Source: a virus
Lineage: Duplodnaviria; Caudoviricetes
Virus record (IMG/VR): IMGVR_UViG_3300037722_000745
Span: 96,001-160,000 of that record
Strand: one strand, 5' to 3'
Length of the DNA: 64,000 bases
Of the stretch, positions 15,862 to 62,242 are shown piece by piece (the first letter of the stretch is position 1; the number at the start of each line of letters is the position of its first letter). Both the position numbers and the translations under genes were made by a program. Below the pieces are notes generated by a model. The model worked only from the letters and a program-made list of their open reading frames with translations, ran no database searches and was not told the origin of the DNA.

Positions 15862-16623
15862 TTATTCAGCCAACTCAGAGTCTGCAAAGCGACGATTCCC
15901 GTAACCGTAGCCGGCTCCACGAAGAGTAGAGATGACTTGACTAGCTTGTTGTTTGGATAAAGTGACTAGCTGCTTTTGGTTAGGGATATGAGAAAACCCA
16001 GTCAAAACATCCAACCCTAAGTCGGACCATTCCTGATGCCCCTTGAGATCTCGTAAAAGTACGCGGATGAAGTTGATCTGCTTGGGTGTACTTTCACCTT
16101 TCAACTTGTCTAAAGGAACTTCACGCTGATACGTAGGTTGCGCCCCGTGCGATTCTTCTGCTCGTTCCCTCTCTTCACGCTTCTCCCGTGCGTCATCCTC
16201 ACGCATCTGACGCTCAGGGTCGCCCTTACGCTGACGAGTCTCCGCCCACTCCTCCCAGAAGTCTTCCCGGTTCTCGTACTTCTCTGCGAGTTCTTCAATG
16301 CGATCCTGAAGCTTGTTTTTCCAGCCCTGCGTCCTTTTGACAATAGGGGCCTTACCCCTCTCTAACGGTCCTTTGTCTTTCAGACTGATGAGCTGCACAC
16401 GGATAGCATCTGATCCAACACCCGCCCCTGTGCCTGAACGAGGGCTAATTGAGGACCATACACGGATACCAACGTGTCCGCCCAGCGTGAGGTCAAAGAT
16501 AATCTCCCCGTTTTTGATCCCCTCTCGAGGACGCAGAGCACGAAACCCTCTCTTGAGGAACTTCTCCATCTCCTCAAGAGTGATCTCCGTATACCGGGCA
16601 GCCATCGCAGTCTTTTGCGTCAT
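15862..16623 (-). CDS. Hypothetical phage protein
   Basis: 253-aa ORF whose start overlaps the helicase stop; no family recognised with confidence. Confidence 0.7.
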   Translation of the reverse strand: MTQKTAMAARYTEITLEEMEKFLKRGFRALRPREGIKNGEIIFDLTLGGHVGIRVWSSISPRSGTGAGVGSDAIRVQLISLKDKGPLERGKAPIVKRTQGWKNKLQDRIEELAEKYENREDFWEEWAETRQRKGDPERQMREDDAREKREERERAEESHGAQPTYQREVPLDKLKGESTPKQINFIRVLLRDLKGHQEWSDLGLDVLTGFSHIPNQKQLVTLSKQQASQVISTLRGAGYGYGNRRFADSELAE

Positions 16624-19600
16624 GACTGCCTCCGATCGTAGGCGGGGATGTCCCAGTCATCCGGGACGACACCTTCGTAGTCGTTTGAAGTTGCGGTCTT
16701 TGATCCCCCACTACCTGTATCCGCAGTTGGAGCACCGGGCTTCGGTACGTTCTCTCCGACCTTGAGACCCGCTTCATCCACAAAGGGACTAATACCCGCC
16801 GCTTTACCGCCAACCGAGGACGGACACACGACCGTCAAGTTCATCGCCGCTCGAGTGAGGGCCACATACCCAAGACGCCGCTCCGATTCCATCTCCTCTT
16901 TGACAACCTCCGGATCAGGCGGAGGCGCTCCAGGCTTCTGCGGTGGCGTAAAGGGGAACTTGCCCTTGGGCATCGAGACATAGCAGTTCTTCCATTGAGC
17001 GCCTTTGGTCCCGTGCGCCGTCCCGATATAGACACCCGGAGGCGGTTTCCGCTGTTCAGGAGGCAGAGCCGCCTGTTGTTTGTCCCACTTGGAAATGTCA
17101 ATGCGCAGCTCGCGAGCCTTGGCTGCATAACGCTCCATCTTGGATTTGAAACCGGACGGAGTGTTGGGATCATCAAGCAGGTCCCCTTCGTCCGTTGGAT
17201 CCTTCTTGGCCAATTCGAACAGGAAGCTGATATTCCCAAGACCCTCAGTCTCGTCTTCCTCCTCTTCAGTCGTGTCATCCTCATCCAAGCTGTCTCGGAG
17301 GTCCGCTTTCAGGCTGTCGCGGAAAGTCTGCTCGACGTATTCCGCACGGGCCGTGCGAGGGTTCGTTACAGCCACCGTGCCCGTCATCCCGAGGATGTCG
17401 TCAAACAACGCATAAGTCGTGTAAGACGGATCCGAGAGGTTCGCTTGCATGCGAGACAGCTCATCATGGATCTCATAGAGCTTCTCTACCGTCTTGTTGT
17501 ACTTGAAGCCACTACGCGAACGGGCCAGTTTCGCAGCCAGTGTTTCGACGAAACGCGAGTCCCCAAGAGCCTGGACAGGGTTGACCGACTTGAGATCTGA
17601 GTTCGTCTGGCGAGAGAAGTTCGCGAAAGCTTCTGAGACCGCACTCACGCCCGCATCTGGACCCACGAAAAAGCGATTGGGTTTGTTGATCACTTCCCCC
17701 AAGGCCGCCTGCATCTTCGCAAAGTTCGATCCCGTCACGAGCTGGACGTAACTCAAGAATGCCTTCGTCTCCGGAGACCCTAGGAAGCTCGATGTTCCCT
17801 TTCTCGCGTAAGGAACACCGCGAATGATACAAGCTGTCTCGTAAGCGTGTTGTTCTTTGTTCGTGCGAGTCAGGATGGCGTTGTCCGTGACCTCCCCGTC
17901 GGCCGCAAGTGACGCTTTGATCTCCTCGATCACATTGAGCGCAGCATCCGCCTCGTCAATCGCAGTTTCAACCCGGACCGAACCCACCCCACGAGTCTTC
18001 GATGGTGCTGGATTCGCCTCCAAGGGAATTTGATCCTCATTGTAGGCAATTAGGCGATTGGCAAGATCAACAATCTCAGGTTGACAACGATAGTTGGTGC
18101 GAATGACCCGCGTCTTCCAACCCTCAGCCTGCGACCTAGCAATGAAGATGTCCGGTCGTGCTCCTCGGAAGCCGTAAATGCTGTTGTGTGAGAGGATCCC
18201 CCCACCAAAAAAGTTGGAGGCGTCGTCAATGTCAAGATCGACGAACGTGCCAGGGACGGATTCAATGCCTGTGATCAGTTCCAGATCCAGACAGCCCCCC
18301 TCTAACACCGCGACTTGCATACCAACCATCAAGGATGATGCCGTGATCAGAGGCGCAGGACCCTCAGAAGTCGACAGCCTTTCCCTAACTGGCACACCCA
18401 ACGATCCCTGCAGCCGTTGGGCGAAATCCAGGCTATCGCGATAGTTGGTGAACCACTTGCGGAGGCGTCTACGTGCCCCACGCTTTTGAAACACAACACC
18501 CATTTCGTCAAGGCGTGCGTCCAAGTCATCACCGGACCACTCCAATCGAACCTGGGAACCCTTTGCGCCGTGTGCTGTTAGATTGATCAACCGACGTTGT
18601 GTGCTCCCTCTAGTGGTGGTACCGCACGCCATCCACACCGGCAGATCGAAACTCATACCTTTTGACTCTAGAATAGCCGCACCCTTACTACCGAACTTCG
18701 CGAACACGGCATCGACCCGGTCTTGATTGATCCCCCTCCCAACTCCATTAAATACCAGCGTGGGTACACCAAATTCCAAAGAATACTCAGCCTCTTTCAG
18801 AAGAGCCGATTCAAGATCCGACTCCACATTTAGAACCCACAACCGATCCGCCCTCTCATGGATCATCCGGGAGCCATAAGGGTTAGCATCCGAGCGGCCT
18901 CTATTTGTAACCCCCACACGAAACCCCACACCCTCTTTGTACATTAGGTAAACCAGATGTTGATCGTCTTCCAATTCTGGAGGTGTGGCCCAGATCTTAT
19001 GGTTGGGGCTCATTGTGAGCGTTCTTCCGCTTTCGGTTGTGACGAAAAGACCGTGTGTCCAGCTCGACGCTACGACATACTGTACCTTCTGGGGCACCAC
19101 ACAACCGTTCCGATAGGCTAGAACAAACTGCCCTTCACGAAGATCCCCCGCAGGAATCTCACCCTCCGGGGTCGCTACTAACGTACTGGTGGACACACAC
19201 TGGCGATCGTCCCCAACCATCCAAACCGACTTACCGTCAGATCCGTCAGTGACGTGCTCCGATATTAACTCAATGATGTCATTCTGAACCTGGTTGAGAT
19301 CTTGGCAGTTGTGGCTCAGTACCCCATTCCCGAAAAAATTCCCAGTGTCCTCTACAGTAATGTCGTAGAACACAACCCCTTCGATAGGCTCCAATGCCAC
19401 AATAGGATCAAGCCCAAATTTGGAGTCATCTCTGGCTCCTAGATCCTGCCCCGTAGCTGACAGATGGGCCTGCCTAATGGCTTCATATATAGAATAGTGG
19501 ACGCAACCCCTAACAGGGACTTGAATTCGATACTTGTCTGCTAGACGCCGGATCTCTTTACCACGCATGAAATTGACAACATTTTCGTTGTTGTCAATCC

Positions 19601-22145
19601 CAGACAGATGGATGGGGAGTTCCATTCCAACCTTCAGGGATCCTGCATTGGTTAGGACACAAGACTGCCCATTCACCAAGATGTCTTCTACTACATAGGC
19701 CCCGAGCGCTTGGGCCAAAGCGCGTGCAGCTTTAGACGCCATCACATACGACACATCGGACACACCCGTGGTCTTACGGACTCCTCCGTGAGTTAGGTAT
19801 ACTTTGCACCCGTCTGGGATAAGTGGTTCATTCTCACCCGCAGTCCAAGACACTGACGCTGTAGTCCGGCGCCCGAGAGATCTGTTCCCGTAACCCCCAG
19901 GACGGTGAGCATTGATCGAAACCACTTTACGATTAGTGTAACTAGAACTCACCCAATGCGGGAACTCTCTACTCAGGCCGTACAGTTCTAAGAGCTTCAG
20001 TCCATTCTGCCCGTACTTGGCGAATATCCGATCCGATAGGGCCTGGTCACACTTCCTGGGTTCCGCCTCAAAGATACGTGACGGGATTTGGTATTGGAGA
20101 GAGTATTCCAGCTCTTTGTACAACATTTCGGACTCTTCCCCAACCTCCAACACCCACAAGCAATCCGCCTTCTCCGTTCCCGCTCGATGCGACTTAAAAA
20201 CACCTGACGCTTGCGTAGATCTACCCAACAAATACGGTACGGTTGACACTCCGACGCGATACCCCATGTCCTTCCGGTACATGAGGTACAAGGCAAGTTC
20301 GTTCTCTCCAATGTCACAGGGATCAAAGCGTGTCGCGTACAACCTATGATCTAAGGTCATGGTCAAGCTGTAGCCAGATTTCGTGTGAGCAGTCACACCC
20401 GCGGTCTTTGAGCTGCGCTTTTTAGCTAGGACCTTCTTGAAAGTGGCGGAACCATTGCAATAGCTCAGGATCTCTTCGCCCACCTCCAACTCAGAAATTG
20501 CTTTACTTTCGCCAAATTTGGTAAGCACTTCGGTGCCCTCGTGAACACACTCATCGACAAGGATGTGATCAAACATCCCCTGAAGAGTTTTTTTAACCGG
20601 TGGCTCTCTTTTAAGGATGGCCAAGAACAATCCCAGCATGTCATCGAAATCGCCCAGACGTCCCCCATTAGGTCGCATACGAGCCATGAACGACTCATAC
20701 GCCTTGGAGGAACTGCAGGCTGGCTTCCAGCCGGGAATGGATCCTTTGAGGCCCTCGTACATCGCGTACCAGTCGGCAGCGTCACGCTCGTCCTGATCCT
20801 TGGCTTGCGCTTTTGCTTCCTCCGGAGAAACATTGTTTCCCGCCCACTTGGACTTCGCCATGAGGACGTTCTTGAGCTTGGGCACCTTACGCTCCTGGGG
20901 GGTCTCCGCCGGATAGCAATCAGCCCAAATACGCTGGACGGCTCGGGCCACCGAACCACCGCCCTGAACAAAGCCTCCGCGATCCTTACCCAGCCCCATC
21001 GCAGAACGCTCTTGAGCTGTCCCATACTCGCCAATGAACTTCCGAAACAGCGAGTGCATCGTGCCTACAGACATTTGATTAAGCGTGTCCCCGCTCGTGG
21101 CGGTACCAATCTTCTGTTTCAGCTCCCCCGCCGCCTTCGTGTTGAAGCTCGTCACCAACACGCGGGAAGGGTTGACCCGCCGATCCTTGATCAGGTACTC
21201 GACCCGCGAGACCACCGTCGTAGACTTGCCGGAACCGGCACCCGCCGCTACAAGGACCCGACCATCAGTGAGCGCTGCCGCCCGTTGTTCGTCGTCTAGC
21301 TTCTGAAGGGGCGTGGGTACATTGTTCGGGTTGTCAGGGTCTGACATGGCCGCAGCCACCGCGGCAGCCGCCATCCCAGCAACCTCAGACTTGGTGGGTG
21401 ATTCATCCGCTTCGCCCGAAACCGCCATCGACCGTTGAGCAGCCTCAGTTGCCTTCTCTTGGACCGTCGCAATGGCCTCATCCTTGGCGGCACCCGCCTC
21501 TTGACGCTCCTCCGAGGAGACTGAAGCTCCCTGTTGCTGCACACGCGTTGCTAACAGAGACTCGGTCTCTACCTCATCGGCACTTACCGCAACAGCATTC
21601 TGGTACGTGCCAGAACCGGCAGTCTCCGCCGCCACATCGATCCACTTCCGGAGCCGTTGGTTTCGCAGAGGGATCACCGCGAACTTGTCTAGCGCCGCAT
21701 CCGCATCGTCCATCATGGACGCTTCAATGGCCGCCTTGACAGCTCTTAGGGCTTTGTTCTGTTTGAAAATCGCCCGCATCGTAGAGGCCCCGCCACGGGA
21801 CAGAACCGTACGGATGTTGAACGTCCTACGAGCCAAACCAGCGGTGTTCGGTAGGAACCGAAACGCTTTGTCGACCATCTTCTTCTGACCGCTGGTTGGG
21901 ACAGCCTCGCCAAGAAACATCTGCACCGCTGCAAGATGCTGGCGATCCGCCAAGCGCACTAGCTGGATCCCTCGACGCACAAGGTCGTCAGCATGATCCT
22001 CCCCAGTCTCATCTTCGATGTATCGGGAATACGTATCAAGAGCCAACAAAAAGACGATGTATTCAGCGATCTCCAACTCGCCTATATCATCCTCTTCTTC
22101 CTCAGCTCCGACGCGCTCCACTACTCTCTCAGACAGGGTCGTCAT
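16620..22145 (-). CDS. uvrD: UvrD/Rep/PcrA superfamily-1 helicase with two inteins and an N-terminal extension
   Basis: Motifs AGAGSGKST, FNTKAAGEL, TMHSLF, DE|CQD, GDDRQ|SIYGFRGA, TNYRC, ILTRTN, TAHGTKG and ERRLGYVALTRA. Start placed at ATG 22145 after an AGGAG RBS. 1841-aa precursor, 1088 aa after splicing. Confidence 0.95.
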   Translation of the reverse strand: MTTLSERVVERVGAEEEEDDIGELEIAEYIVFLLALDTYSRYIEDETGEDHADDLVRRGIQLVRLADRQHLAAVQMFLGEAVPTSGQKKMVDKAFRFLPNTAGLARRTFNIRTVLSRGGASTMRAIFKQNKALRAVKAAIEASMMDDADAALDKFAVIPLRNQRLRKWIDVAAETAGSGTYQNAVAVSADEVETESLLATRVQQQGASVSSEERQEAGAAKDEAIATVQEKATEAAQRSMAVSGEADESPTKSEVAGMAAAAVAAAMSDPDNPNNVPTPLQKLDDEQRAAALTDGRVLVAAGAGSGKSTTVVSRVEYLIKDRRVNPSRVLVTSFNTKAAGELKQKIGTATSGDTLNQMSVGTMHSLFRKFIGEYGTAQERSAMGLGKDRGGFVQGGGSVARAVQRIWADCYPAETPQERKVPKLKNVLMAKSKWAGNNVSPEEAKAQAKDQDERDAADWYAMYEGLKGSIPGWKPACSSSKAYESFMARMRPNGGRLGDFDDMLGLFLAILKREPPVKKTLQGMFDHILVDECVHEGTEVLTKFGESKAISELEVGEEILSYCNGSATFKKVLAKKRSSKTAGVTAHTKSGYSLTMTLDHRLYATRFDPCDIGENELALYLMYRKDMGYRVGVSTVPYLLGRSTQASGVFKSHRAGTEKADCLWVLEVGEESEMLYKELEYSLQYQIPSRIFEAEPRKCDQALSDRIFAKYGQNGLKLLELYGLSREFPHWVSSSYTNRKVVSINAHRPGGYGNRSLGRRTTASVSWTAGENEPLIPDGCKVYLTHGGVRKTTGVSDVSYVMASKAARALAQALGAYVVEDILVNGQSCVLTNAGSLKVGMELPIHLSGIDNNENVVNFMRGKEIRRLADKYRIQVPVRGCVHYSIYEAIRQAHLSATGQDLGARDDSKFGLDPIVALEPIEGVVFYDITVEDTGNFFGNGVLSHNCQDLNQVQNDIIELISEHVTDGSDGKSVWMVGDDRQCVSTSTLVATPEGEIPAGDLREGQFVLAYRNGCVVPQKVQYVVASSWTHGLFVTTESGRTLTMSPNHKIWATPPELEDDQHLVYLMYKEGVGFRVGVTNRGRSDANPYGSRMIHERADRLWVLNVESDLESALLKEAEYSLEFGVPTLVFNGVGRGINQDRVDAVFAKFGSKGAAILESKGMSFDLPVWMACGTTTRGSTQRRLINLTAHGAKGSQVRLEWSGDDLDARLDEMGVVFQKRGARRRLRKWFTNYRDSLDFAQRLQGSLGVPVRERLSTSEGPAPLITASSLMVGMQVAVLEGGCLDLELITGIESVPGTFVDLDIDDASNFFGGGILSHNSIYGFRGARPDIFIARSQAEGWKTRVIRTNYRCQPEIVDLANRLIAYNEDQIPLEANPAPSKTRGVGSVRVETAIDEADAALNVIEEIKASLAADGEVTDNAILTRTNKEQHAYETACIIRGVPYARKGTSSFLGSPETKAFLSYVQLVTGSNFAKMQAALGEVINKPNRFFVGPDAGVSAVSEAFANFSRQTNSDLKSVNPVQALGDSRFVETLAAKLARSRSGFKYNKTVEKLYEIHDELSRMQANLSDPSYTTYALFDDILGMTGTVAVTNPRTARAEYVEQTFRDSLKADLRDSLDEDDTTEEEEDETEGLGNISFLFELAKKDPTDEGDLLDDPNTPSGFKSKMERYAAKARELRIDISKWDKQQAALPPEQRKPPPGVYIGTAHGTKGAQWKNCYVSMPKGKFPFTPPQKPGAPPPDPEVVKEEMESERRLGYVALTRAAMNLTVVCPSSVGGKAAGISPFVDEAGLKVGENVPKPGAPTADTGSGGSKTATSNDYEGVVPDDWDIPAYDRRQS
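18183..19199 (-). mobile_element. Intein 2 in UvrD motif III (339 aa)
   Basis: Starts C1 (CVSTSTLVATPEG), block B (MSPNHKIW), ends ILSHN, followed by Ser+1 of SIYGFRGA. Confidence 0.93.
19308..20549 (-). mobile_element. Intein 1 in the UvrD Walker B motif (414 aa)
   Basis: Starts C1 (CVHEGTEVLTKFG), block B (MTLDHRLY), ends VLSHN, followed by Cys+1 of CQD. Confidence 0.93.
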
Positions 22146-22183
22146 GCATTCCGCTCCTACTTGACTCAACCGCTAAAGAAAAA

Positions 22184-22798: not shown

Positions 22799-23659
22799 AT
22801 GGACCTGAACGTCCGAATCGAAAAGGGCCTTCCGCCCCTGGTGGAGGGGGCGGTGTCCTTTGAGACAGGCGCGACCCGGGAACAGCTCGCCGATCCCAGC
22901 CAGATCGCTTACGAGCACCACGGGCCCGAATTCAGCCCTCTGGAAAGGGGAGCGTTACCCGCTTTCTTCGAGGATTTGCTACTCGGGCGTCCTATGCCAC
23001 TCGTGTTCGCTACACCACAAATCCAAGATGTGGACACCCTAGTAGCCATTTCCTTGTTCCTACACCGAGACCTTGCCACGCATCCCGCTATGCCAGGGTT
23101 CGTTTACCTCACCGACTTTGTCCACCGACTTGGACTACCAGCTTTAGCTCATATTGACGAGGATCTGGCCCGATTCTTTTCCGCATTGCGAACCTATTTG
23201 CCTGACGAAGGTCTGTCGCAAAGAGACCTGAGTAATCGAATCCAACACGCGGTCAGCTGGACCCGGAAATACATCCATGAGGGGAGCGTTTCCTTGCTTG
23301 GATCCGCCCAGGTAAGCAGTGTCCAAGTGTTGGATCAGGGGACCTCAGGGTTCGTGGTGGCTCAATGCCAGGGCCCTCTGCTCGACGGATGGGTGGAACT
23401 CTACCGCCTGGGATTCCTTCGGGGCATCCTCGTCAGCTCGGCACAACAGAATGACAGGCGCCATGTTCTCATCGCCCGCAAGAGCGTCTATGTGCTGTTC
23501 GACCTGAAAGCAGCCGGCCGAATCCTGAACCAAATGGAATCGGCTATGGGCGAACTTCCAGACTGGACCGTAGACCCCAACGGACTTTGGCTCAAGAGCC
23601 CCAGAGATGGGACTCTCATCCTCCTCCAAGACACCACCCAGATCCTGATTCGAATTTAA
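22799..23659 (+). CDS. DHH-phosphoesterase-like protein (divergent)
   Basis: 286 aa. YEHHG and QDVDTLVA resemble DHH-fold metal-binding motifs. First gene of the only plus-strand unit. Confidence 0.45.
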   Translation: MDLNVRIEKGLPPLVEGAVSFETGATREQLADPSQIAYEHHGPEFSPLERGALPAFFEDLLLGRPMPLVFATPQIQDVDTLVAISLFLHRDLATHPAMPGFVYLTDFVHRLGLPALAHIDEDLARFFSALRTYLPDEGLSQRDLSNRIQHAVSWTRKYIHEGSVSLLGSAQVSSVQVLDQGTSGFVVAQCQGPLLDGWVELYRLGFLRGILVSSAQQNDRRHVLIARKSVYVLFDLKAAGRILNQMESAMGELPDWTVDPNGLWLKSPRDGTLILLQDTTQILIRI

Positions 23660-23660
23660 T

Positions 23661-24008
23661 ATGACTCAGCTTCCCAAACTTGTTCGCGACCGCCTTCCAA
23701 TGAAACTGGCCTTCCTGGAGATCAGGCACAGCGCTCGCATCGAAACAGGCGACCGTCTATATGCCTCCCATCTACGAGCCAAACTCCGCGAGAAGGTCGA
23801 CGAGTTCCTCGAATCTGAGTCAGTTGAAGAGCTGGCTGACATCCTCGAAGTCCTCGATGCCCTAGCCCTGTACCATAGGATCGACCCACGGGAGATCCAA
23901 CGAGTCAAACAGCGGAAGTACGATCAATACGGAGGTTTCTCCGGCCGCGTAGTGCTTCTAGAAGTCGACAACAACACCCCTACCCCACCTCCTAAGGGAA
24001 GTACGTAG
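23661..24008 (+). CDS. MazG-like nucleoside triphosphate pyrophosphohydrolase (all-alpha)
   Basis: 115 aa. KLVRDRLP...KLREKVDEFLES..EELADILEVLDAL matches the MazG/HisE-like house-cleaning NTP pyrophosphatase pattern. Confidence 0.8.
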   Translation: MTQLPKLVRDRLPMKLAFLEIRHSARIETGDRLYASHLRAKLREKVDEFLESESVEELADILEVLDALALYHRIDPREIQRVKQRKYDQYGGFSGRVVLLEVDNNTPTPPPKGST

Positions 24009-24213
24009 GTCTCTTGGAGGTTTTCGAGAGCCTCAGTGGTGTGTTATCCTCGGGGGTCTCTCGCATTCTGCGGGTTCCTTGAAAATTCAATAGGTTAGAT
24101 GGATCCGGATCCCGATCGGCTTCTGGATCCAAGGGTCCCCAACTCATGATCCCACAGGGGGTCTCCCAAACCGCCTTGTGAATCCCTGAATTCACACGGT
24201 TTCTCAGACTCCC
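24009..24213 (+). promoter_or_regulatory. Probable CRISPR leader
   Basis: Non-coding; contains an AT-rich core (ttgaaaattcaataggtta) and two gggggtctc motifs; abuts the 5' end of repeats that end in ATTGAAAC. Confidence 0.55.
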
Positions 24214-25201
24214 CCTGAGGGAGGTACCCGCCTCCCTCGTAATTGAAACAGAGCGGCGTGGACCCATCCGGACTGCATTCTCACTCCCTGAGGGAGGTAC
24301 CCGCCTCCCTCGTAATTGAAACCACAGGACGTTGGGCGGAATCCCCGCCTCCCTCGTAATTGAAACCTCAGGTAAGCTACATGCGGAGAAGGCGCCCTGA
24401 GGGAGGTGAAAGCCTCCCTCGTAATTGAAACACGCCGTAATCCCCGAGTACGTGCAGCTTGGTTTCGCACCTGAGGGAGGTGAAAGCCTCACTCGTAATT
24501 TGAAACCAGCGGAACGACGGTCCAGAAGGCGCAAAAGGTGATCCCTGAGGGAGGTGAAAGCCTCCCTCGTAATTGAAACGAAACCGGACGCCCCGCCGGT
24601 TACGCCGCCTGCTCAAGCTCAGCAATCGCCTGTGGCGCGACGACCCTGAGGGAGGTGAAAGCCTCCCTCGTAATTGAAACGATGAGCTCGGAGCGCAGCC
24701 GGGCGGCATCGCGCGCGATCCTGAGGGAGGTGAAAGCCTCCCTCGTAATTGAAACGTGGATCAACTCTCTCAGGGTCATAGATCGGGTGTCTCCCTGAGG
24801 GAGGTGAAAGCCTCCCTCGTAATTGAAACGCCAACGCAGATACTCTGATGTCGAGATCGGTGATCTCCCTGAGGGAGGTGAAAGCCTCCCTCGTAATTGA
24901 AACGCTGGGCTGGTTACGGAGCCCGACCGTGACGAGCACTGCCTGAGGGAGGTGAAAGCCTCCCTCGTAATTGAAACGCGGCAGCGTAGCCGTACGCTCC
25001 CATGACCCCGTCACCCTGAGGGAGGTGAAAGCCTCCCTCGTAATTGAAACCTTGAATGGGCCCGCGACAACCATCCCTCGCTTGTCGTCCTGAGGGAGGT
25101 GAAAGCCTCCCTCGTAATTGAAACGCAATAGGGGTGGGGTCAGCGTATAGACGTGATCATGGTGTCCTGAGGGAGGTGAAAGCCTCCCTCGTAATTGAAA
25201 C
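24214..25201 (+). CRISPR. CRISPR array, 14 repeats / 13 spacers, class 1-type repeat, no cas gene in window
   Basis: 36-bp repeat CCTGAGGGAGGTGAAAGCCTCCCTCGTAATTGAAAC (8-bp stem GAGGGAGG/CCTCCCTC, 3' ATTGAAAC). Starts at 24214, 24287, 24344 (partial), 24396, 24470, 24544, 24645, 24720, 24794, 24868, 24942, 25015, 25089, 25166. Spacer lengths 37, 21, 29, 38, 37, 65, 39, 38, 38, 38, 37, 38, 41. Confidence 0.97.
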
Positions 25202-25745
25202 GCTCTCGAATCTCGGCCAACGCCCTAACGTGCTCCTCGTCCCCAGCTCGAACCATGTGGTGGGTGAGAGCCTGGTACCCAACACACCCTGCATCGCAAA
25301 CGGGACACCAGTGATCCGCCCCACGAGCGACGGCACGCTCACGAAGCTGCTCAGGCGTCACCCGTTTTTGCCCCTTCCGGCTAAGGCCAACCTTTGTGCC
25401 CGCCGCGGAATGGAACCTCTTGGACCGCGCATCAAAAGCCTCCTGGCCAAATTCCGCGACCCACAAGCTCCTCAAGGTATTGGGGCTCATGCCAAAACTA
25501 GCCGACACCTTCTTGAATGCCTGCTCGGTGTGGAATGCCGCAAGGATATCCGCACGAGAAGCTGTCGATCGCTTAGGGTCGTTGCGATCCCGGATCTCCG
25601 CAAAGCGCTCCTCGCCCAAACGATCTAACAACACCGGTTTGATCGTGTTGACGCTCCCCCCAAGACGCCTGGACAAGGCTTTCAACGACTCCCCACCCAA
25701 GAAGCCTTCAAGGGCCTGCCCATAGGTCCACTTCCGCTTAGACAT
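25140..25745 (-). pseudogene. Tandem-HTH plus C2H2-like Zn-finger gene truncated by the CRISPR array (probable homing endonuclease remnant)
   Basis: Two HTH-like repeats, then CPVC...HH...H. The frame enters repeat 14 (reading RFNYEGGFHLPQ) and stops inside spacer 13. Confidence 0.65.
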
Positions 25746-25862
25746 AGTGCAGTGCAGACAACCTACACCGCCGAAACGGATCTGATCCAGCTAGATCCAA
25801 CTAAAGAGGAGAGCTACCAAAAAGCAAGCGTTCCCTCTAAATAGCTGATAAAACTACTGTTT

Positions 25863-28800
25863 TTAGATTCTAGCCCGAAGATTGAAAGTAAGGACAATAT
25901 ACAAAAGAGGAAAAATTGGAGCATAGAACATTTCGAAGTTCAGGATAGTGGGGTCGTCTGGGTCTATCTCTGCCGTCATGCCAGTGAAGGCCCCGACGAT
26001 CTCAGCCTGAACTAACGAACGGAAAAGCCCGGTCATCGATACGACAACTTCATTGGTCCGGCTCGCAAGGAACTTGGTGCCAATGTATGAATCCAAAATT
26101 GATCGACTCTGCTGATGGACAAAGTCCGCAATCTGGACAACCGTCGGTAGACGTGTGAGAACGTTGGCCATGTTTGTCGTCAGACCCTGTCGGATACGGA
26201 TGATGGGATCCAAATCCTCCAAGAGGGTGACACCAGCGACAGCCGTCTGATTGGCCTCCACCGGATCTAGGATCCTTGGGATCCTGGTGAACCCCTGAAT
26301 CCTGCGACGAGTGTAAGGAGTCGCCACGTCAACAGCCGGCGAAACTACGGCTCCAGCAACCGCCGCCCCGAAGAAGCTGCCGTCGATGAGCTGTTCAAAG
26401 TTCTGCCCCAACTCGTCAGTCAGAGTGATGACCGAAGAGTCTGGGTACAGAGCCACGATGCGACTAGAGTTCAAACCTCGAGCCACAGCCTGCACAGCCG
26501 TAGGAATCGTACCTGACGCGAACCCAACGAACCCAATACGCTCCGCCTGGTTGCGGATATTCGATTGAATTTCGCAGTGGTTGGTCAGGTGTGTGTAGAC
26601 CGCGGTGTCAGTCGCCAGCGGCACGATGATGTCCGGGCGGATGTTGCCTGGCAGCGGTGTCGCCAGCTCGTCGATCGCCTCATTGAACGCCTGGGCCGAA
26701 GCCTGATTGGTGTTAGGGATCTTGAGCACCTGCTTGATGATGATCAGGACGGCACCGTTCAGGATCGCCAGGTACCCTCCCAGAGAAGCTCGGTTTTCCG
26801 CCGAGGTCCCTCCGAAGTTGGCCTCGATCGTCTTGAGCTGCTGGAAGATCCTCGGCGAGTAGTCCTGCTTTTGGTATCGGTAGGTGATGAAGTAGAAGTC
26901 CCCGACAGACGGTTCAACTCCGTCCGGATTGTAGGTCGTCAGATCCGCCGTATCGTTGACGCCGACCCCCACAGTATTCGAAACCAGTAGCTCCAAGCCC
27001 CCGATCGAGTATCGAGGCACACTCGGCGACACATGGAAGGTCTCCTGCGCCTCCAAGGTGAACGAACCCGCCGGGTCGTAGCTGCCCGTGCTGGCTGGAA
27101 GCACCGTGAAACGCAACCCGGTTGTGGCATCAGTATACGTTTGCCCTGGGACGCCCGTACCCGATGACCCCGTGCCAGCGGTAGAGGTCACAGTGAAGAA
27201 GTCCGAGGGATCTTCCCCGACGTCACCATCCGTACCTGGTGTGATGTCGACACCCGTAGAGGGGTGGAACGCTGAGTTCACTGCGTTAGCAAATCCAATG
27301 CTAGACGTAGCCGCCCCCGTCGAGAGCGAAACGAACGTGATGTAGTCCGAGCCGCTCACGGTATCAACATAAGCCACGGCCCCAGCGGCGAAACCAACCG
27401 TCGCCATGAGAGAACTCACAACTTCCTGAGCCTCAACAAGAGTCTGGCTGGCAAACTGGTTCTGGGTGAATCCCAGCACGTCGTTCGCAGACCCGGCCCC
27501 GATCAAAATGGCAGAGTTGGCGTCATTCGTCGCGCTTGTTAGCCGGATCTTGTCCAAGTTGGCCCCAGTGCCCACTGAAGCTACGCTGCCCGGAATCACT
27601 CCGTTGATGTCAGCAGCGACCGTAACCGCCGTTACAGCCGCTCCTGCGGTCAGCGTGACCGTGTATTCGACCCCGTTCACGGTCGCAACGAGAATGTCAT
27701 TGAGACCCGCCGTGATATTGAAATCCCCGACCAGGGTGCCCAACAACGTAGCAGGCTTGTTGATAGACCCCGTCGTCCCCTCGACGCTCGCAAACGTCTG
27801 GAAGCCGAGCGTACCCTCCGCCGTGCCTTGGTTGATCGTGACGTTGGAGACATCATCGAAACCTCCAGGCAGAGCGCCTGGAACTTCCAAACCACGGATG
27901 ATGAAGTAGACATCCCCTGTAGCCCCACCGACCTGAGAGAAACTAGCCAGGTTGTTAGGAGCCGTGCCAATGAAAGCCGCATCAGCGTCGATAACGGCAT
28001 TGATCTCGGCTACAATAGCTGTTGGAGTCTGGGTGCCAGAGGTCAGGCTGATCGTAGCGAGGTCAACACCGTCGATGGTGATGTTCAGATCGTTGTCCGG
28101 AGCCGGATCGATCGTGATGTCACCTGCGTCGACACCTGTTTGGATCGGCGTGACAGGGCCACTCACGAGCACAGCCGGAGCCGCCGCCGCCAGGTTGGTG
28201 ACCTGGTTCACGGCGTCCACCACGGTCGTCCAAGTCGCCGAGAACGGCGAGTAGAACGAATAGGGTGCAGCGCCCTTGATAGTGTAGACCGCGTTGGTCG
28301 CCACGCTCTGATCGAACGTCACGGTCACGACCTCGGACACAGGGGCCCCAGAACCCGAGTGAAAGGCGTCCGGAATCAGCTCCGAGCCTCTCGGCCACTG
28401 GACAATCTGACTCAGACCTGTCTTGGACCCAAATCGAGTCTCGTAGAGGTTCGCATCCTGGGTGGTTGAGAAGACCTTGTACTGGCCGGTCCCTACCGGG
28501 CCAGGGACCGTGTTGGTGAGGATGTACGTGTCATCCGCAAGGCGGCTGTAGTAGAACGTTGCGTAAGCGTTGTAGCCAGGAGGCTGGGCGTCCTGCAGTA
28601 CGATGCGACGGTTCACACCGTCCACCACTTCCACAGGTACGGCAGGTCGATTCAACGCGTCTCGCAGTGTACGACCCGTGTATACCTGGATCAGATCTGG
28701 TCGATTCGTGAGTAGCGCTTGACGGCTGTTGGCTACCGAGTTGAAGGTTGTCAAGCCCAGCGTGGTGCTACGACCGTTACCCGTGGTGGGCACCTCCGGT

Positions 28801-30155
28801 AGCAGGAAGTCTGTGCTCGAGACCGTTGCCGGGATGGTGCTGGTATCGGTGACTCGGACGCACTCCGCCAAATACAAACGCTCATCAATAAGCGTACCAA
28901 CCACCTGCCCCCCGGCCCCTGTCGAACCATCGAAAGGCGTAGCCCCTGGGGTAGTCGTGCCGGGGGCCACCTGGAAGCTAGATCCCCAGTTAATGACCGA
29001 CACATCCGTGCTCGGGTTCGAAACGACAAAGTCCGTGCCTTGGATGAAGTCATTGCGGCCAGGTGAGATACCAGCGCGGAGAACCGTTGTCACCAGACTG
29101 TTGGGCAGGTAATCGAAGGTATCCTGCCATGTGTTGGCCCAGTACTGTACTGTTACCGTAGCTCCAGGAGCGGGCGCAAAGGGCAGTGTCACGATCCCGT
29201 TCGTGCCGTCCACTTGTTGCACGACGACCTGAGTTCCGTCGACCTTCGCCACCACCTTGGACGTGTCCGTAGTGGTGGTGCCGCCTCCCGTACCGTCCAC
29301 AATGGGCCGTTGGAACACACGGAAGTCACGGTTGCGATTAGACGACGCACCCGCAGTGAAACCCAACGGGCCGTTCGCAGTGCCTTCTCCGATGGTCAGA
29401 CCCACCGGGGTCGTGAACTGGATGTGATCCAAACCTTGGTTATCAGTTGACACCGAAGTCGACAGGTTGGACACCGAGGCGGCATTGATGGTCGAAACCA
29501 CCGTAGTAGCAGACAACGAACCCGCAGGAAGCGTGATCGTGGCCACCGTACCATTGACGTTGATGACGAACTGATCATTGCTGCCCGCTACGATTTCGAA
29601 CGGAGCATACCCAGGAGAGGTTAGAGACGCGTTCGTCTCAGTAACCTGATCCGATAGATCATCAGTGAACGAGGTGTCGCCCCTATGGAAAAAGTACGTG
29701 ACCCGGACGTCGTCCGTAGCTTGTGTGGGAACCTGAAGCGTGACAAGCCCGCTCGAACCTTGGATCGAGCCCACAGCCACCGGAGTCCCATTCGCAGTAA
29801 CAGTCACCGACCGAACGTCATTCGTGGTCAAGCCAAACCCTTGACCATCCACAATGGGGTAGTTCCGAACTCGGAACTGAGTCAGAGTGCCGTCTTGGAC
29901 CCCAAGGATCAGGTTGTTGGCGTTAGAGTCATCCACAACCCAGCTCTCGGACACGTCCTCGTTGACGATCCGCTGATCCACAGTTGAGGATGACCCGCGA
30001 ACGATCTCAAAGTCGTTCTGCTCCAGCTCTTCCTGACCGACGCCAATCAGAGCTGGGATCCTAAGCCCCGCCACCAAATTGCTGGCGTTTGTCTCAGTCA
30101 GGGTACGGGTGTAGACGCCAGGGGGAGCGTATGAAATAAAGGGGCCTAGGGCCAT
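25863..30155 (-). CDS. Contractile tail sheath protein with multiple inserted domains
   Basis: 1430 aa. N-terminal APPGVYTRTL; C-terminal sheath core (AAVAGAV...PYTRRRIQGF...QTAVAGVTLLE...IRIRQGLTT...APIFPLLYIVLTFNL). Confidence 0.92.
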   Translation of the reverse strand: MALGPFISYAPPGVYTRTLTETNASNLVAGLRIPALIGVGQEELEQNDFEIVRGSSSTVDQRIVNEDVSESWVVDDSNANNLILGVQDGTLTQFRVRNYPIVDGQGFGLTTNDVRSVTVTANGTPVAVGSIQGSSGLVTLQVPTQATDDVRVTYFFHRGDTSFTDDLSDQVTETNASLTSPGYAPFEIVAGSNDQFVINVNGTVATITLPAGSLSATTVVSTINAASVSNLSTSVSTDNQGLDHIQFTTPVGLTIGEGTANGPLGFTAGASSNRNRDFRVFQRPIVDGTGGGTTTTDTSKVVAKVDGTQVVVQQVDGTNGIVTLPFAPAPGATVTVQYWANTWQDTFDYLPNSLVTTVLRAGISPGRNDFIQGTDFVVSNPSTDVSVINWGSSFQVAPGTTTPGATPFDGSTGAGGQVVGTLIDERLYLAECVRVTDTSTIPATVSSTDFLLPEVPTTGNGRSTTLGLTTFNSVANSRQALLTNRPDLIQVYTGRTLRDALNRPAVPVEVVDGVNRRIVLQDAQPPGYNAYATFYYSRLADDTYILTNTVPGPVGTGQYKVFSTTQDANLYETRFGSKTGLSQIVQWPRGSELIPDAFHSGSGAPVSEVVTVTFDQSVATNAVYTIKGAAPYSFYSPFSATWTTVVDAVNQVTNLAAAAPAVLVSGPVTPIQTGVDAGDITIDPAPDNDLNITIDGVDLATISLTSGTQTPTAIVAEINAVIDADAAFIGTAPNNLASFSQVGGATGDVYFIIRGLEVPGALPGGFDDVSNVTINQGTAEGTLGFQTFASVEGTTGSINKPATLLGTLVGDFNITAGLNDILVATVNGVEYTVTLTAGAAVTAVTVAADINGVIPGSVASVGTGANLDKIRLTSATNDANSAILIGAGSANDVLGFTQNQFASQTLVEAQEVVSSLMATVGFAAGAVAYVDTVSGSDYITFVSLSTGAATSSIGFANAVNSAFHPSTGVDITPGTDGDVGEDPSDFFTVTSTAGTGSSGTGVPGQTYTDATTGLRFTVLPASTGSYDPAGSFTLEAQETFHVSPSVPRYSIGGLELLVSNTVGVGVNDTADLTTYNPDGVEPSVGDFYFITYRYQKQDYSPRIFQQLKTIEANFGGTSAENRASLGGYLAILNGAVLIIIKQVLKIPNTNQASAQAFNEAIDELATPLPGNIRPDIIVPLATDTAVYTHLTNHCEIQSNIRNQAERIGFVGFASGTIPTAVQAVARGLNSSRIVALYPDSSVITLTDELGQNFEQLIDGSFFGAAVAGAVVSPAVDVATPYTRRRIQGFTRIPRILDPVEANQTAVAGVTLLEDLDPIIRIRQGLTTNMANVLTRLPTVVQIADFVHQQSRSILDSYIGTKFLASRTNEVVVSMTGLFRSLVQAEIVGAFTGMTAEIDPDDPTILNFEMFYAPIFPLLYIVLTFNLRARI

Positions 30156-60090: not shown

Positions 60091-60486
60091 CCCCAGCATG
60101 ACCCCAATGCAGGCTTCTTTTTGCTCCAGAGTCAATTCCACACGAGATGTGGATCGTTCCGTTTTGGATATCGAACGGATTCCAAATTTCTTCAGTCTAG
60201 ATCTGACAGTTGGTTTACTGACACCGAATTTCTTGGCTATGGCCTGCTGGCCCATAGACGAGTACATGGAGGCCAAATTGGCTGGAGTGAGCGTGTCAAA
60301 TTCAAGACAACCCGTTTCGTGGCCCAGCCTGGCAAGCTGACTCTTTGTCTCAATCCCTGCTTTACGCCTCCACTTCGATACGGAAACATCTGAGACACCG
60401 TGCATCTGGGCTATCTCTTTATCCGTAAGATTACGTTCAACGTAGAGGGTGCGCAGTGTCTCCGTGGGGATCTCTTTAGAGGCCAT
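60091..60486 (-). pseudogene. HTH-HTH-LAGLIDADG homing endonuclease remnant fused in frame to ung
   Basis: Two HTH repeats, then [15 protein letters not shown], cut off where the LAGLIDADG helix should continue with DG. Confidence 0.7.
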
Positions 60487-60705: not shown

Positions 60706-61587
60706 TCACACCCGGGTGATGACAATACGGGTCAAACCACGCGGGTTGAACGCGCCAATGCCCAGGTTCTCGAAGCACGAGAAGCCGATGGTGCGAGCCT
60801 TCGGGTCATCCGCCGACAAGACGGTGACTTCCGTCCTAACGGGGATGCGGCCGAACTGCTCGGGTTCGCAGCACACGTACGAGAAGCCGGTCGGAACGAG
60901 CCTGGACGTGATGATCTGGGCGCCCCACAGAACGGCCTGGAGGCCGGTCTTGAGCAGGGTGGCCTGACTCTCGATGTCCAAGATATCACGACCGAACTTG
61001 CGGATGTCCGCGTAGTCCGTAGCGTTCATGTAGATGCGGGCGACACGAAGGTCGTGACGCTCGATCGCCGCAAACGCATCAGCCAGGACCGCAGGCGACA
61101 CCGGAGCGACCACCGGAACGTCCGGGTTGGTCTGGCCCGGCAGCGTGTCGAAACCCGAGACAGCGATGCTGTCCAAGATCGCGAACACACGCTCATCCTC
61201 CGCTGCCTGGATCTGCGCCTTCGCCAGATCTTGAGCACGCTCGATCAGATCGAAACGACGATCCTTAATCTGAGTGAGAGGGATCTCCGGGTTCGAGGCG
61301 ATCTCGAACAAGGGGAAGATCACGCGCCGAGGCTTCTGGATGGCAAGAATGTTCTCGCCTTCCTCGCCCACGACGTAGGCCGTGACATCCGGATCCTTGT
61401 CGTAGATCGGCAATGCTCCGTCCGGAAGCTGCTCGACGAGGAAGGTCTTACGACCAACCGACGAGTAGTCCCGCCGAAGACGCAGGGGTTGGATCATCGA
61501 AGCTGCGAGCTTCGCACGTCCAGCGGCCGTCTTGATATACTCCGAGATGACCTGCTGCTTTGTGGCGTTTGAGACTTGGTTACCCAT
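60706..61587 (-). CDS. Major capsid protein (HK97-like fold)
   Basis: 293 aa; strong codon bias; order scaffold - decoration - capsid - terminator; capsid-like FEIASNPEI and RIPVRTEVTV segments. Confidence 0.8.
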   Translation of the reverse strand: MGNQVSNATKQQVISEYIKTAAGRAKLAASMIQPLRLRRDYSSVGRKTFLVEQLPDGALPIYDKDPDVTAYVVGEEGENILAIQKPRRVIFPLFEIASNPEIPLTQIKDRRFDLIERAQDLAKAQIQAAEDERVFAILDSIAVSGFDTLPGQTNPDVPVVAPVSPAVLADAFAAIERHDLRVARIYMNATDYADIRKFGRDILDIESQATLLKTGLQAVLWGAQIITSRLVPTGFSYVCCEPEQFGRIPVRTEVTVLSADDPKARTIGFSCFENLGIGAFNPRGLTRIVITRV

Positions 61588-61615
61588 GGTTCTCTGCTCC
61601 TATTGTCCGAAGTCC

Positions 61616-62242
61616 TCAGACCCTAAGGTCCAACACGAGGAGCGAAGAATTGGCGTCTGGAGCAACCTTAACAATGCCCATGATGGTATTGTTCTCGATC
61701 CCAGCCGCAACCTGGGTCTCGTAGCTGTCCGCGAGTACGTTGGTGAGCAAACCGTTCTGAGAAGCGTACAGTTTGTCACCAGCCGCGTAAGTCAGGGCAT
61801 TCCCGGCGCCACCGCCGATCAGCACCTGTGTCTCGTAGACTGAGACACCAACACACGAGCCGCTCCCGCAGACGTATGGACCGCGTCCCGAAGCCACACC
61901 TGGCGTGTTCTCGAAGGGGTTACCCAAAGCGTCGTTGAGAAACAACCCGAGAGGTCGACAGCCAGCGACAAAGCCAGCCGAGTTGGGGCCACCGATGTAG
62001 TTGTTGCCAACATCGGGCCTGGTGAACGCTACGGTACCACCAAGGACACCTACCTTGATGACGCCCGAAAGCGTGGTGGAGACGGTGTTGGCTACGGTGA
62101 CGATCGGGGGATTGCTCTGTGTGAATGCATCCGCCGTCAGAATACCCACTGAGTTGCGGGTCACGACGTAGAGAGGTTGCAAACGTCCAGAAGTCTCCCG
62201 AAAATCACCCGAGCTTTGACCGCCGATGGCGAAACTAGTCAT
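61616..62242 (-). CDS. Capsid decoration/cement protein
   Basis: 208 aa, Gly-rich beta protein between the scaffold and capsid genes. Confidence 0.55.
   Translation of the reverse strand: MTSFAIGGQSSGDFRETSGRLQPLYVVTRNSVGILTADAFTQSNPPIVTVANTVSTTLSGVIKVGVLGGTVAFTRPDVGNNYIGGPNSAGFVAGCRPLGLFLNDALGNPFENTPGVASGRGPYVCGSGSCVGVSVYETQVLIGGGAGNALTYAAGDKLYASQNGLLTNVLADSYETQVAAGIENNTIMGIVKVAPDANSSLLVLDLRV

Follow-up and report, generated by a model that had tools for sequence, protein, structure and literature searches.

A CRISPR array joined in frame to a predicted DNA-binding protein gene in a huge phage

CRISPR loci and phages can reportedly recombine directly: in staphylococci, Varble and colleagues are said to have found in 2019 that spacers recombine with their protospacers (Nat Microbiol 4:956), the setting being a host type III/II locus and transduction. 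Such a mechanism predicts a repeat followed by phage sequence starting at the protospacer, as is found at positions 25201/25202 of the locus described here. Our case differs in that the array family appears to be that of the phage lineage, the donor spacer was not found, and the outcome is a stable phage genome with an apparently truncated gene.

Several other systems place arrays in phage genomes. A type I-C variant of huge phages, described from phages bearing CasPhi, has Cas5c, Cas8c, Cas7c and a helicase replacing Cas3, with no Cas1 or Cas2 (PMC7162821; Al-Shayeb et al. 2020); its description mentions neither multiple dispersed leader-array copies nor gene fusion. The cas gene layout and phage-borne array of G001, a complete 411-kb relative of the phage studied here, match this variant, and the G001 repeat is related to ours; unlike in that system, no cas genes were found in the 323 kb available for our phage. 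Mini-arrays on viruses are reported to be directed at adjacent genes in related viruses (Medvedeva et al. 2019, PMC6858448), and virus-borne mini-arrays and solitary repeat units figure in virus-virus conflicts (PMC6858448; Camara-Wilpert et al. 2023, PMC10651486). Our phage resembles these cases in its cas-less, leadered arrays, in a spacer against an adjacent gene and in lone repeats elsewhere, and departs from them in that the array considered here is longer (14 repeats) and has its end fused in frame to a gene. Another route for repeat-spacer units into a phage genome is that of prophage phiAP1.1, which integrates into Streptococcus pyogenes CRISPR repeats (bioRxiv 10.1101/2020.10.09.333658); there the phage is temperate and the integrase site lies inside the repeat, whereas here the join falls at the repeat edge and involves neither integrase nor att site. 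Arrays of the I-C variant on phages, viral arrays without cas genes, isolated repeats and the recombination of spacers with protospacers are thus already known. New here is one particular junction found in nature, in which the end of an array is fused in frame to a gene at a domain boundary, within a slot that holds a nuclease-methylase fusion in relatives.

The junction between array and gene

The window, the whole stretch of DNA that was analysed, comprises 64,000 nucleotides, bases 96001-160000 of a 323-kb IMG/VR huge-phage record (G000). The completeness of this record is estimated at 68%, and it begins within a CRISPR array (array A). A search of the INPHARED phage collection gave no match. 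The features of the locus, in window coordinates, are as follows.

22799-23659, plus strand: ORF286, conserved left neighbour of the variable slot
23661-24008, plus strand: ORF115, MazG-superfamily NTP pyrophosphatase, slot cargo in this phage only
24018-24213, plus strand: CRISPR leader, 196 nt, upstream of array D
24214-25201, plus strand: CRISPR array D (120214-121201 in G000), 13 full repeats, one partial repeat and 12-13 spacers
25140-25745, minus strand: ORF201 (protein P0001), HTH-HTH-C2H2 module (residues 1-181) and 20-aa tail
25166-25201, plus strand: repeat 14, perfect terminal repeat, whose antisense encodes ORF201 residues 182-193
25202-25239, plus strand: first 38 nt of the flank, hypothetical former spacer/protospacer
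25863-30155, minus strand: gene for a 1430-aa protein, conserved right neighbour and synteny anchor

Array D consists of regular 36-nt repeats with unique spacers of 37-41 nt and a few irregular units, and its repeat has a 6-bp stem and a plus-strand end reading ATTGAAAC. Among the irregular units are a 5'-truncated repeat at 24343-24366, within 'spacer 2', and a 65-nt double-length spacer at 24580-24644 whose halves have no repeat between them. Three features set transcription from left to right: the leader, the ATTGAAAC terminus of the repeat and the degenerate right ends of arrays B and C elsewhere in the genome. Because of the last two and of the leader's homology to that of G001, the opposite orientation was rejected. 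The array transcript would therefore enter ORF201 antisense. A consensus scan detected no sigma-70 promoter in the leader, and no promoters or terminators were found by scanning 23600-26000.

Repeat 14 is a perfect copy of the consensus 36-mer and directly adjoins the ORF201 coding sequence. A first-pass annotation of the window had remarked that the array ends without a degenerate terminal repeat or trailer, and that a minus-strand reading frame passes through the last repeat and stops in spacer 13. Both remarks are borne out: neither element follows repeat 14, and ORF201 runs through it to a TGA stop at 25140-25142, so that the last 20 of its 201 residues are encoded by repeat 14 and spacer 13. 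Homology to related proteins extends as far as the invariant R180 (25206-25208), possibly E181, which places the join within 0-4 nt of the repeat edge, that is, at the repeat-spacer boundary. With a repeat-spacer unit of ~74 nt, a random breakpoint would fall this close to an edge in about 7% of cases. The flank starting at 25202 begins with G, as do eight of the nine preceding spacers. No clear microhomology is present at the join; 25202-25239 has no second copy in the genome, and a 28-mer from this flank has no match in IMG/VR.

The junction of ORF201 and the array is confirmed as real by an independent contig. Contig Ga0395802_0723758 (982 bp, JGI sample 3300037518, our L034) is 100% identical to the window over 25047-26028 and spans the ORF201 gene, repeat 14, spacer 13, repeat 13 and spacer 12. 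A 3628-bp contig from a second sample (JGI 3300037705, our L058) runs from ORF286 to repeat 12 with one mismatch. Gene order flanking the junction agrees with that of relatives on both sides, which argues against a chimeric assembly.

Residues 1-181 of ORF201 share 53-61% identity with homologues and retain every one of the 69 columns invariant among them, with no frameshift or internal stop. The structure model (pLDDT 75.5) predicts two helical HTH bundles and a C2H2 finger; its last helix spans residues 170-186, confidence drops after residue 180, and the tail, at pLDDT below 50, is predicted to be disordered. The modelled module ends at about residue 183, so that the cut coincides with a domain boundary. 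The suggestion of the first-pass annotation that the product may persist as a DNA-binding protein with a CRISPR-encoded tail of 20 residues agrees with the intact 1-181 region, the predicted fold and the predicted disorder of the tail. The genome holds no paralogues of ORF201. On the tree its branch has a length of 0.48 against about 0.3 in its sisters, which may reflect relaxed constraint. Membership of the TniQ family was considered and rejected: the Pfam score is 16.7 bits against a cut-off of 27, the PADLOC match has E = 1.1e-4, and the homologues do not lie near arrays. As judged from these scores, the similarity is generic HTH and zinc-finger likeness.

Repeats and leaders of the phage lineage

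Besides array D, the record contains further arrays and scattered repeats, which bring the total to at least four arrays (A-D) plus lone repeats (coordinates of G000).

1-257: array A, cut by the contig start (L018)
61334-61884: array B
64598-65586: array C (L017)
10712, 223772, 285971, 286131 and 322376: lone or partial repeats

The 196-nt leader is common to arrays B, C and D at 90-93% identity. Partial copies of it occur at 286020 and 223744, in units that combine a leader fragment with one repeat (223744-223807 and 286020-286165). A loop variant of the repeat, TACCCG, is present in the two full leader-proximal repeats of array D and in the partial repeat after them, and also in eight leader-proximal repeats of array C, suggesting a block exchange between the two arrays. 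Two spacers of array C are each present twice (C2 = C4, C3 = C7).

Array C ends in a repeat cut at nucleotide 23, only 4 nt past the point where an intact, convergent gene of 206 aa has its natural stop, so an array can also lie flush with a gene end without the gene being truncated. Taken together, the ectopic breakpoints inside a repeat (array C, nucleotide 23) and inside the leader (223744 and 286020) indicate that homology-independent joins also happen in this genome. At 285971-286165 (L020), an inverted pair of repeats surrounds the first 99 nt of the leader, and the second repeat copy has its hairpin loop flipped (CTTTCA, not TGAAAG), which looks like the scar of an inversion via the palindromic stem.

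When the spacers of this genome were compared with the genome itself and with the loci of relatives, a single match emerged. Spacer B5 (61665-61703, L017) matches the phage's own gene for a 1439-aa protein at 60212-60250, 1.4 kb upstream of array B and in direct orientation, at 34 of 39 positions with a perfect run of 29 nt. The mismatches cluster on the PAM-proximal side, and TTC, the type I-C PAM, stands at the expected side of the target; as a PAM here, TTC rests on this one imperfect protospacer match. B5 could either have been acquired from the version of the neighbouring gene in a close relative or be an escaped self-target. Spacers B5 and D12 had no match in exact scans of IMG/VR, and the G001 spacers matched neither this genome nor G001.

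An 813-aa ORF lies between arrays B and C (61939-64380; L017:9940-12381). It begins like a lipoprotein, contains about nine Cys-rich repeats and ends in a beta-rich C-terminal region, and it gave no Pfam, PADLOC or PDB match. We rejected it as a Cas effector in favor of a secreted Cys-rich repeat protein.

Among the collections searched, only this phage and G001 yielded members of the repeat family. In G001, an array of ~60 repeats, with a related repeat ending in ...CTGTAATTGAAAC, follows cas5c, cas8c, cas7c, an SF2 helicase and a gene for a 256-aa protein; its leader, downstream of the cas genes and on the same strand, has a start like that of the leader described here, as judged by eye. The trailers of array A and of the main G001 array have just a short AACAAACAAAC motif in common, and as the genes downstream are non-orthologous, orthology of these two arrays was not relied upon. 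On the evidence of these sequence comparisons, the repeat and leader are probably part of a type I-C-variant system native to the phage lineage. Cas1 (PF01867) was absent from both the 323 kb of G000 and the complete G001, Cas6 (PF01881) was not found in the 323 kb of G000, and the G001 I-C proteins gave no tblastn match in these 323 kb (68% of the genome by estimate). The I-C cas genes of this phage may lie in the missing third or an unassembled part of the genome.

No cellular source of the array came to light. An exact 20-mer of the repeat is absent from IMG/VR, from GTDB genomes (185,579 species genomes) and from JGI metagenome contigs. A gapped-pattern search for arrays ending in GTAATTGAAAC returned cyanobacterial and other arrays with otherwise unrelated repeats, and the same pattern in IMG/VR returned only G001 and two coding tandem repeats. 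Given the lack of a cellular array, a repeat and leader of the phage lineage and the several copies already present, a host donor is neither found nor needed.

A gene slot with variable contents

The neighbourhood of the junction is conserved: in every relative, ORF286 and a UvrD-type helicase lie to the left, and the 1430-aa protein to the right. ORF286 is 64-66% identical at the amino acid level to a gene of 283-286 aa in the equivalent position in G001 (L009) and in loci L011, L012 and L013, and DNA homology with L012/L013 on this side extends to about 23633. The 1430-aa protein has 74-82% amino acid identity to the product of the gene upstream of every ORF201 homologue. The UvrD-type helicase (window 16620-22169) has 1849 aa here; its G001 counterpart has 1093 aa and those of the remaining relatives 1171-1593 aa, length differences consistent with varying intein content.

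What lies between the conserved genes differs from phage to phage. Four lineages have long homologues of ORF201, of 590-736 aa:

L010: 736 aa
L012/L013: 736 aa
L011/L016: 732 aa
P0008: 590 aa, no genomic context

The same gene slot is seen in three of these four lineages, P0008 being the exception, and the 3' ends of the long gene and of the ORF286 homologue meet directly in L011-L013. Past residue ~181, the long forms have, after a short linker, a Ros/MucR zinc finger and an N6/N4 DNA methylase; Ros/MucR and N6_N4_Mtase score above the Pfam cut-offs, and PADLOC reports MTase_II. Three of the four add a putative Vsr-like nuclease fold with an alpha-beta-beta-beta-alpha-beta core (model pLDDT 67), for which the best Foldseek matches are the I-Bth0305I homing endonuclease, Vsr and the R2 endonuclease, at probabilities of 0.96-0.99 and a weak E value of about 0.01. 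ORF201 has neither the Ros/MucR finger nor the methylase after residue 181, and the missing part is absent from the rest of the 323 kb, on which ground an internal rearrangement was rejected. The guess of the first-pass annotation that a nuclease domain is lacking thus fits the homologues: beyond the junction point, most of them carry the nuclease-like fold, Ros/MucR finger and methylase.

G001 provides the counterexample. Its short form (P0002) is a natural protein of 184 aa that aligns to residue 182 and stops three codons past the junction point; between it and ORF286 lie three genes of 192, 176 and 219 aa (L009 10565-12623) without a Pfam match. In our phage the corresponding cargo includes ORF115, which has 1238 homologues, several of them named in their source as MazG-type house-cleaning NTP-PPase, and a weak Pfam match to PRA-PH; no such gene occurs in the slot of any relative, nor in G001. 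The stretch from the module end to ORF286 thus holds a nuclease-like domain with a methylase, a methylase alone, three unrelated genes, or a MazG-type gene with leader and array, and from these comparisons behaves as a swappable cargo slot. The DNA-binding N-terminal module can apparently stand alone, to judge from the 184-aa G001 protein.

Whether the phage lost the 3' part of its gene, as first proposed, depends on the length of the ancestor. The N-terminal module of ORF201 groups with L011 and L012 at support of 94/95, in a small tree of few taxa, and the flanking 1430-aa protein is 80-82% identical to those of the L011-L013 lineages against 74-75% for others. This kinship of module and flanks to long-form lineages, together with the absence of the missing part elsewhere, favors a long ancestor that lost 1.65 kb. 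Of the five other lineages with ORF201 homologues, four are long. On the other side, the natural 184-aa form of G001 means that the ancestor here could have been short already, and a swappable slot can have a history apart from that of its flanks. We consider it probable that the ancestor was long and doubtful that it was already short. The proposed loss is thus favored by the longer homologues and the long-form grouping, and is tempered by P0002: the objection that homologues might end naturally at this point applies to that protein, and not to the four long lineages.

How the join may have formed

From the observed junction, array family, long and short homologues and synteny, we infer a long ancestor and a way of joining. 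The explanation we favor, with a probability of roughly 0.55, is that an array module of the phage lineage's own replaced the 3' part of a long gene. Array D is one of several dispersed copies of the lineage's type I-C-variant leader-plus-array module. The variable cargo slot in which it sits is bounded by a conserved pair of genes that converge, ORF286 and the gene for the HTH-HTH-zinc-finger protein. The closest relatives have the latter gene's 3' 1.65 kb in this slot, with Ros/MucR finger, Vsr-like nuclease fold and N6/N4 methylase; in our phage the slot is taken up by the MazG gene, leader and array. The remainder of the gene encodes a stand-alone DNA-binding module whose reading frame enters the array for 20 codons and then stops, and at the right-hand join the repeat's spacer-side edge meets the end of the protein's N-terminal module. 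This explanation takes in two routes, a crossover at spacer homology and homology-independent joining.

In the first of these routes, a spacer of a phage-borne array, the phage's own or that of a co-infecting relative, would have crossed over with its target in the neighbouring gene. We propose this tentatively, as a possibility of some weight. The precise position of the junction at the repeat edge suggests such a crossover, and its prior is raised by the B5 self-match, the targeting of adjacent genes by viral mini-arrays and the initial G of the flank. If a spacer crossover took place, the partners were more likely both phage DNAs. The observed structure would result from such an exchange between phages, or from the deletion of what lay between a self-matching spacer and a nearby target. 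It is weakened by the triplets in the PAM-equivalent position of the nearest intact alleles (CCT, CCT, CTC and TAG, not TTC, in alleles of only ~60% protein identity), by the lack of a donor spacer, by the breaks internal to repeats and leader, and by the gene-end packing of array C. Neither IMG/VR nor the genome, both incomplete collections, contains an array with 25202-25239 as a spacer, and the idea that this flank is an old fourteenth spacer accordingly gained nothing from our searches.

In the second route, an illegitimate or microhomology join would have cut off both the distal end of the array and the 3' part of the gene, the array having once lain downstream of the full gene or having arrived as a cassette, and its position at the repeat edge would be coincidental. 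That several other copies break inside repeats or leaders, and that array D itself contains a partial repeat and a 65-nt double spacer, makes such joining possible, if somewhat doubtful in view of the roughly 7% expectation for a breakpoint 0-4 nt from an edge and of the lack of clear microhomology.

A different history would begin with a gene that was already short, at which the MazG-leader-array segment was inserted or swapped in flush, so that only the last two to three codons and the stop were lost. P0002 is a direct precedent, with alignment to residue 182 immediately before its end at 184 aa and three unrelated genes downstream that show the slot to be swappable at this very boundary; array C, which ends 4 nt away from where an intact gene naturally stops, and a modelled module end at about residue 183 fit as well. 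The module and flanks are nearest to long-form lineages, however, and four of the five other lineages are long, and we regard this history as doubtful.

A more elaborate possibility, which we consider unlikely, is that the join is the scar of a CRISPR-guided allele replacement between competing huge phages. The spacer of a phage-borne array would have targeted the nuclease-methylase gene occupying the same slot in rivals; the targeting would have broken a rival genome, and repair, using the spacer as the only available homology, would have copied MazG gene, leader and array over the 3' part of the rival gene. Repeat 14 and its flank might still give a fourteenth guide that cuts intact alleles, and an array of this kind would propagate in the manner of a gene drive through a lineage without Cas1-Cas2.

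The first-pass annotation had instead proposed capture from a host, in which a host array with a spacer against this gene moved into the phage by spacer-protospacer recombination, with loss of the gene's 3' part and PAM. A junction at the repeat-spacer boundary, an ORF201 shorter than most homologues, a flank beginning with G like the neighbouring spacers and a mechanism known from staphylococci all accord with it. We nonetheless find it quite improbable: the repeat is absent from the 185,579 species genomes, the JGI metagenome contigs and IMG/VR, cellular arrays that end in GTAATTGAAAC resemble ours in no other part of the repeat, a related phage equipped with Cascade genes of its own has this repeat family and leader too, and other arrays with the same leader are already present in this genome. 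The claim of a host origin is therefore not supported by the collections searched.

It is also very improbable that a leader with a single repeat landed here and the array grew at its leader end, so that the oldest repeat always touched the gene. Units of a leader fragment and one repeat do exist (223744-223807 and 286020-286165), and the variant repeats are polarised toward the leader as such growth predicts, but the solitary units have only partial leaders, and as Cas1 is absent from both the record and the complete relative, growth would need host enzymes. Finally, an assembly chimera at the CRISPR repeat, conceivable in a genome with the same 36-nt repeat in many places and a record that begins inside an array, is scarcely credible given that a second contig crosses the join at 100% identity, that the flanks are neighbours in every relative, and that a repeat beside codon 181 would still be required.

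If spacer homology made the join that we favor as a replacement by the lineage's own array module, the locus would be a natural, non-laboratory case of such recombination from uncultured huge phages. Arrays would then move, and remodel genes, by recombination and not through Cas1-Cas2, which would go some way to account for the multiplication of arrays where a phage lineage has no adaptation genes. Without that mechanism, the locus still marks a cargo-swapping slot and indicates that an N-terminal DNA-binding module can stand alone.
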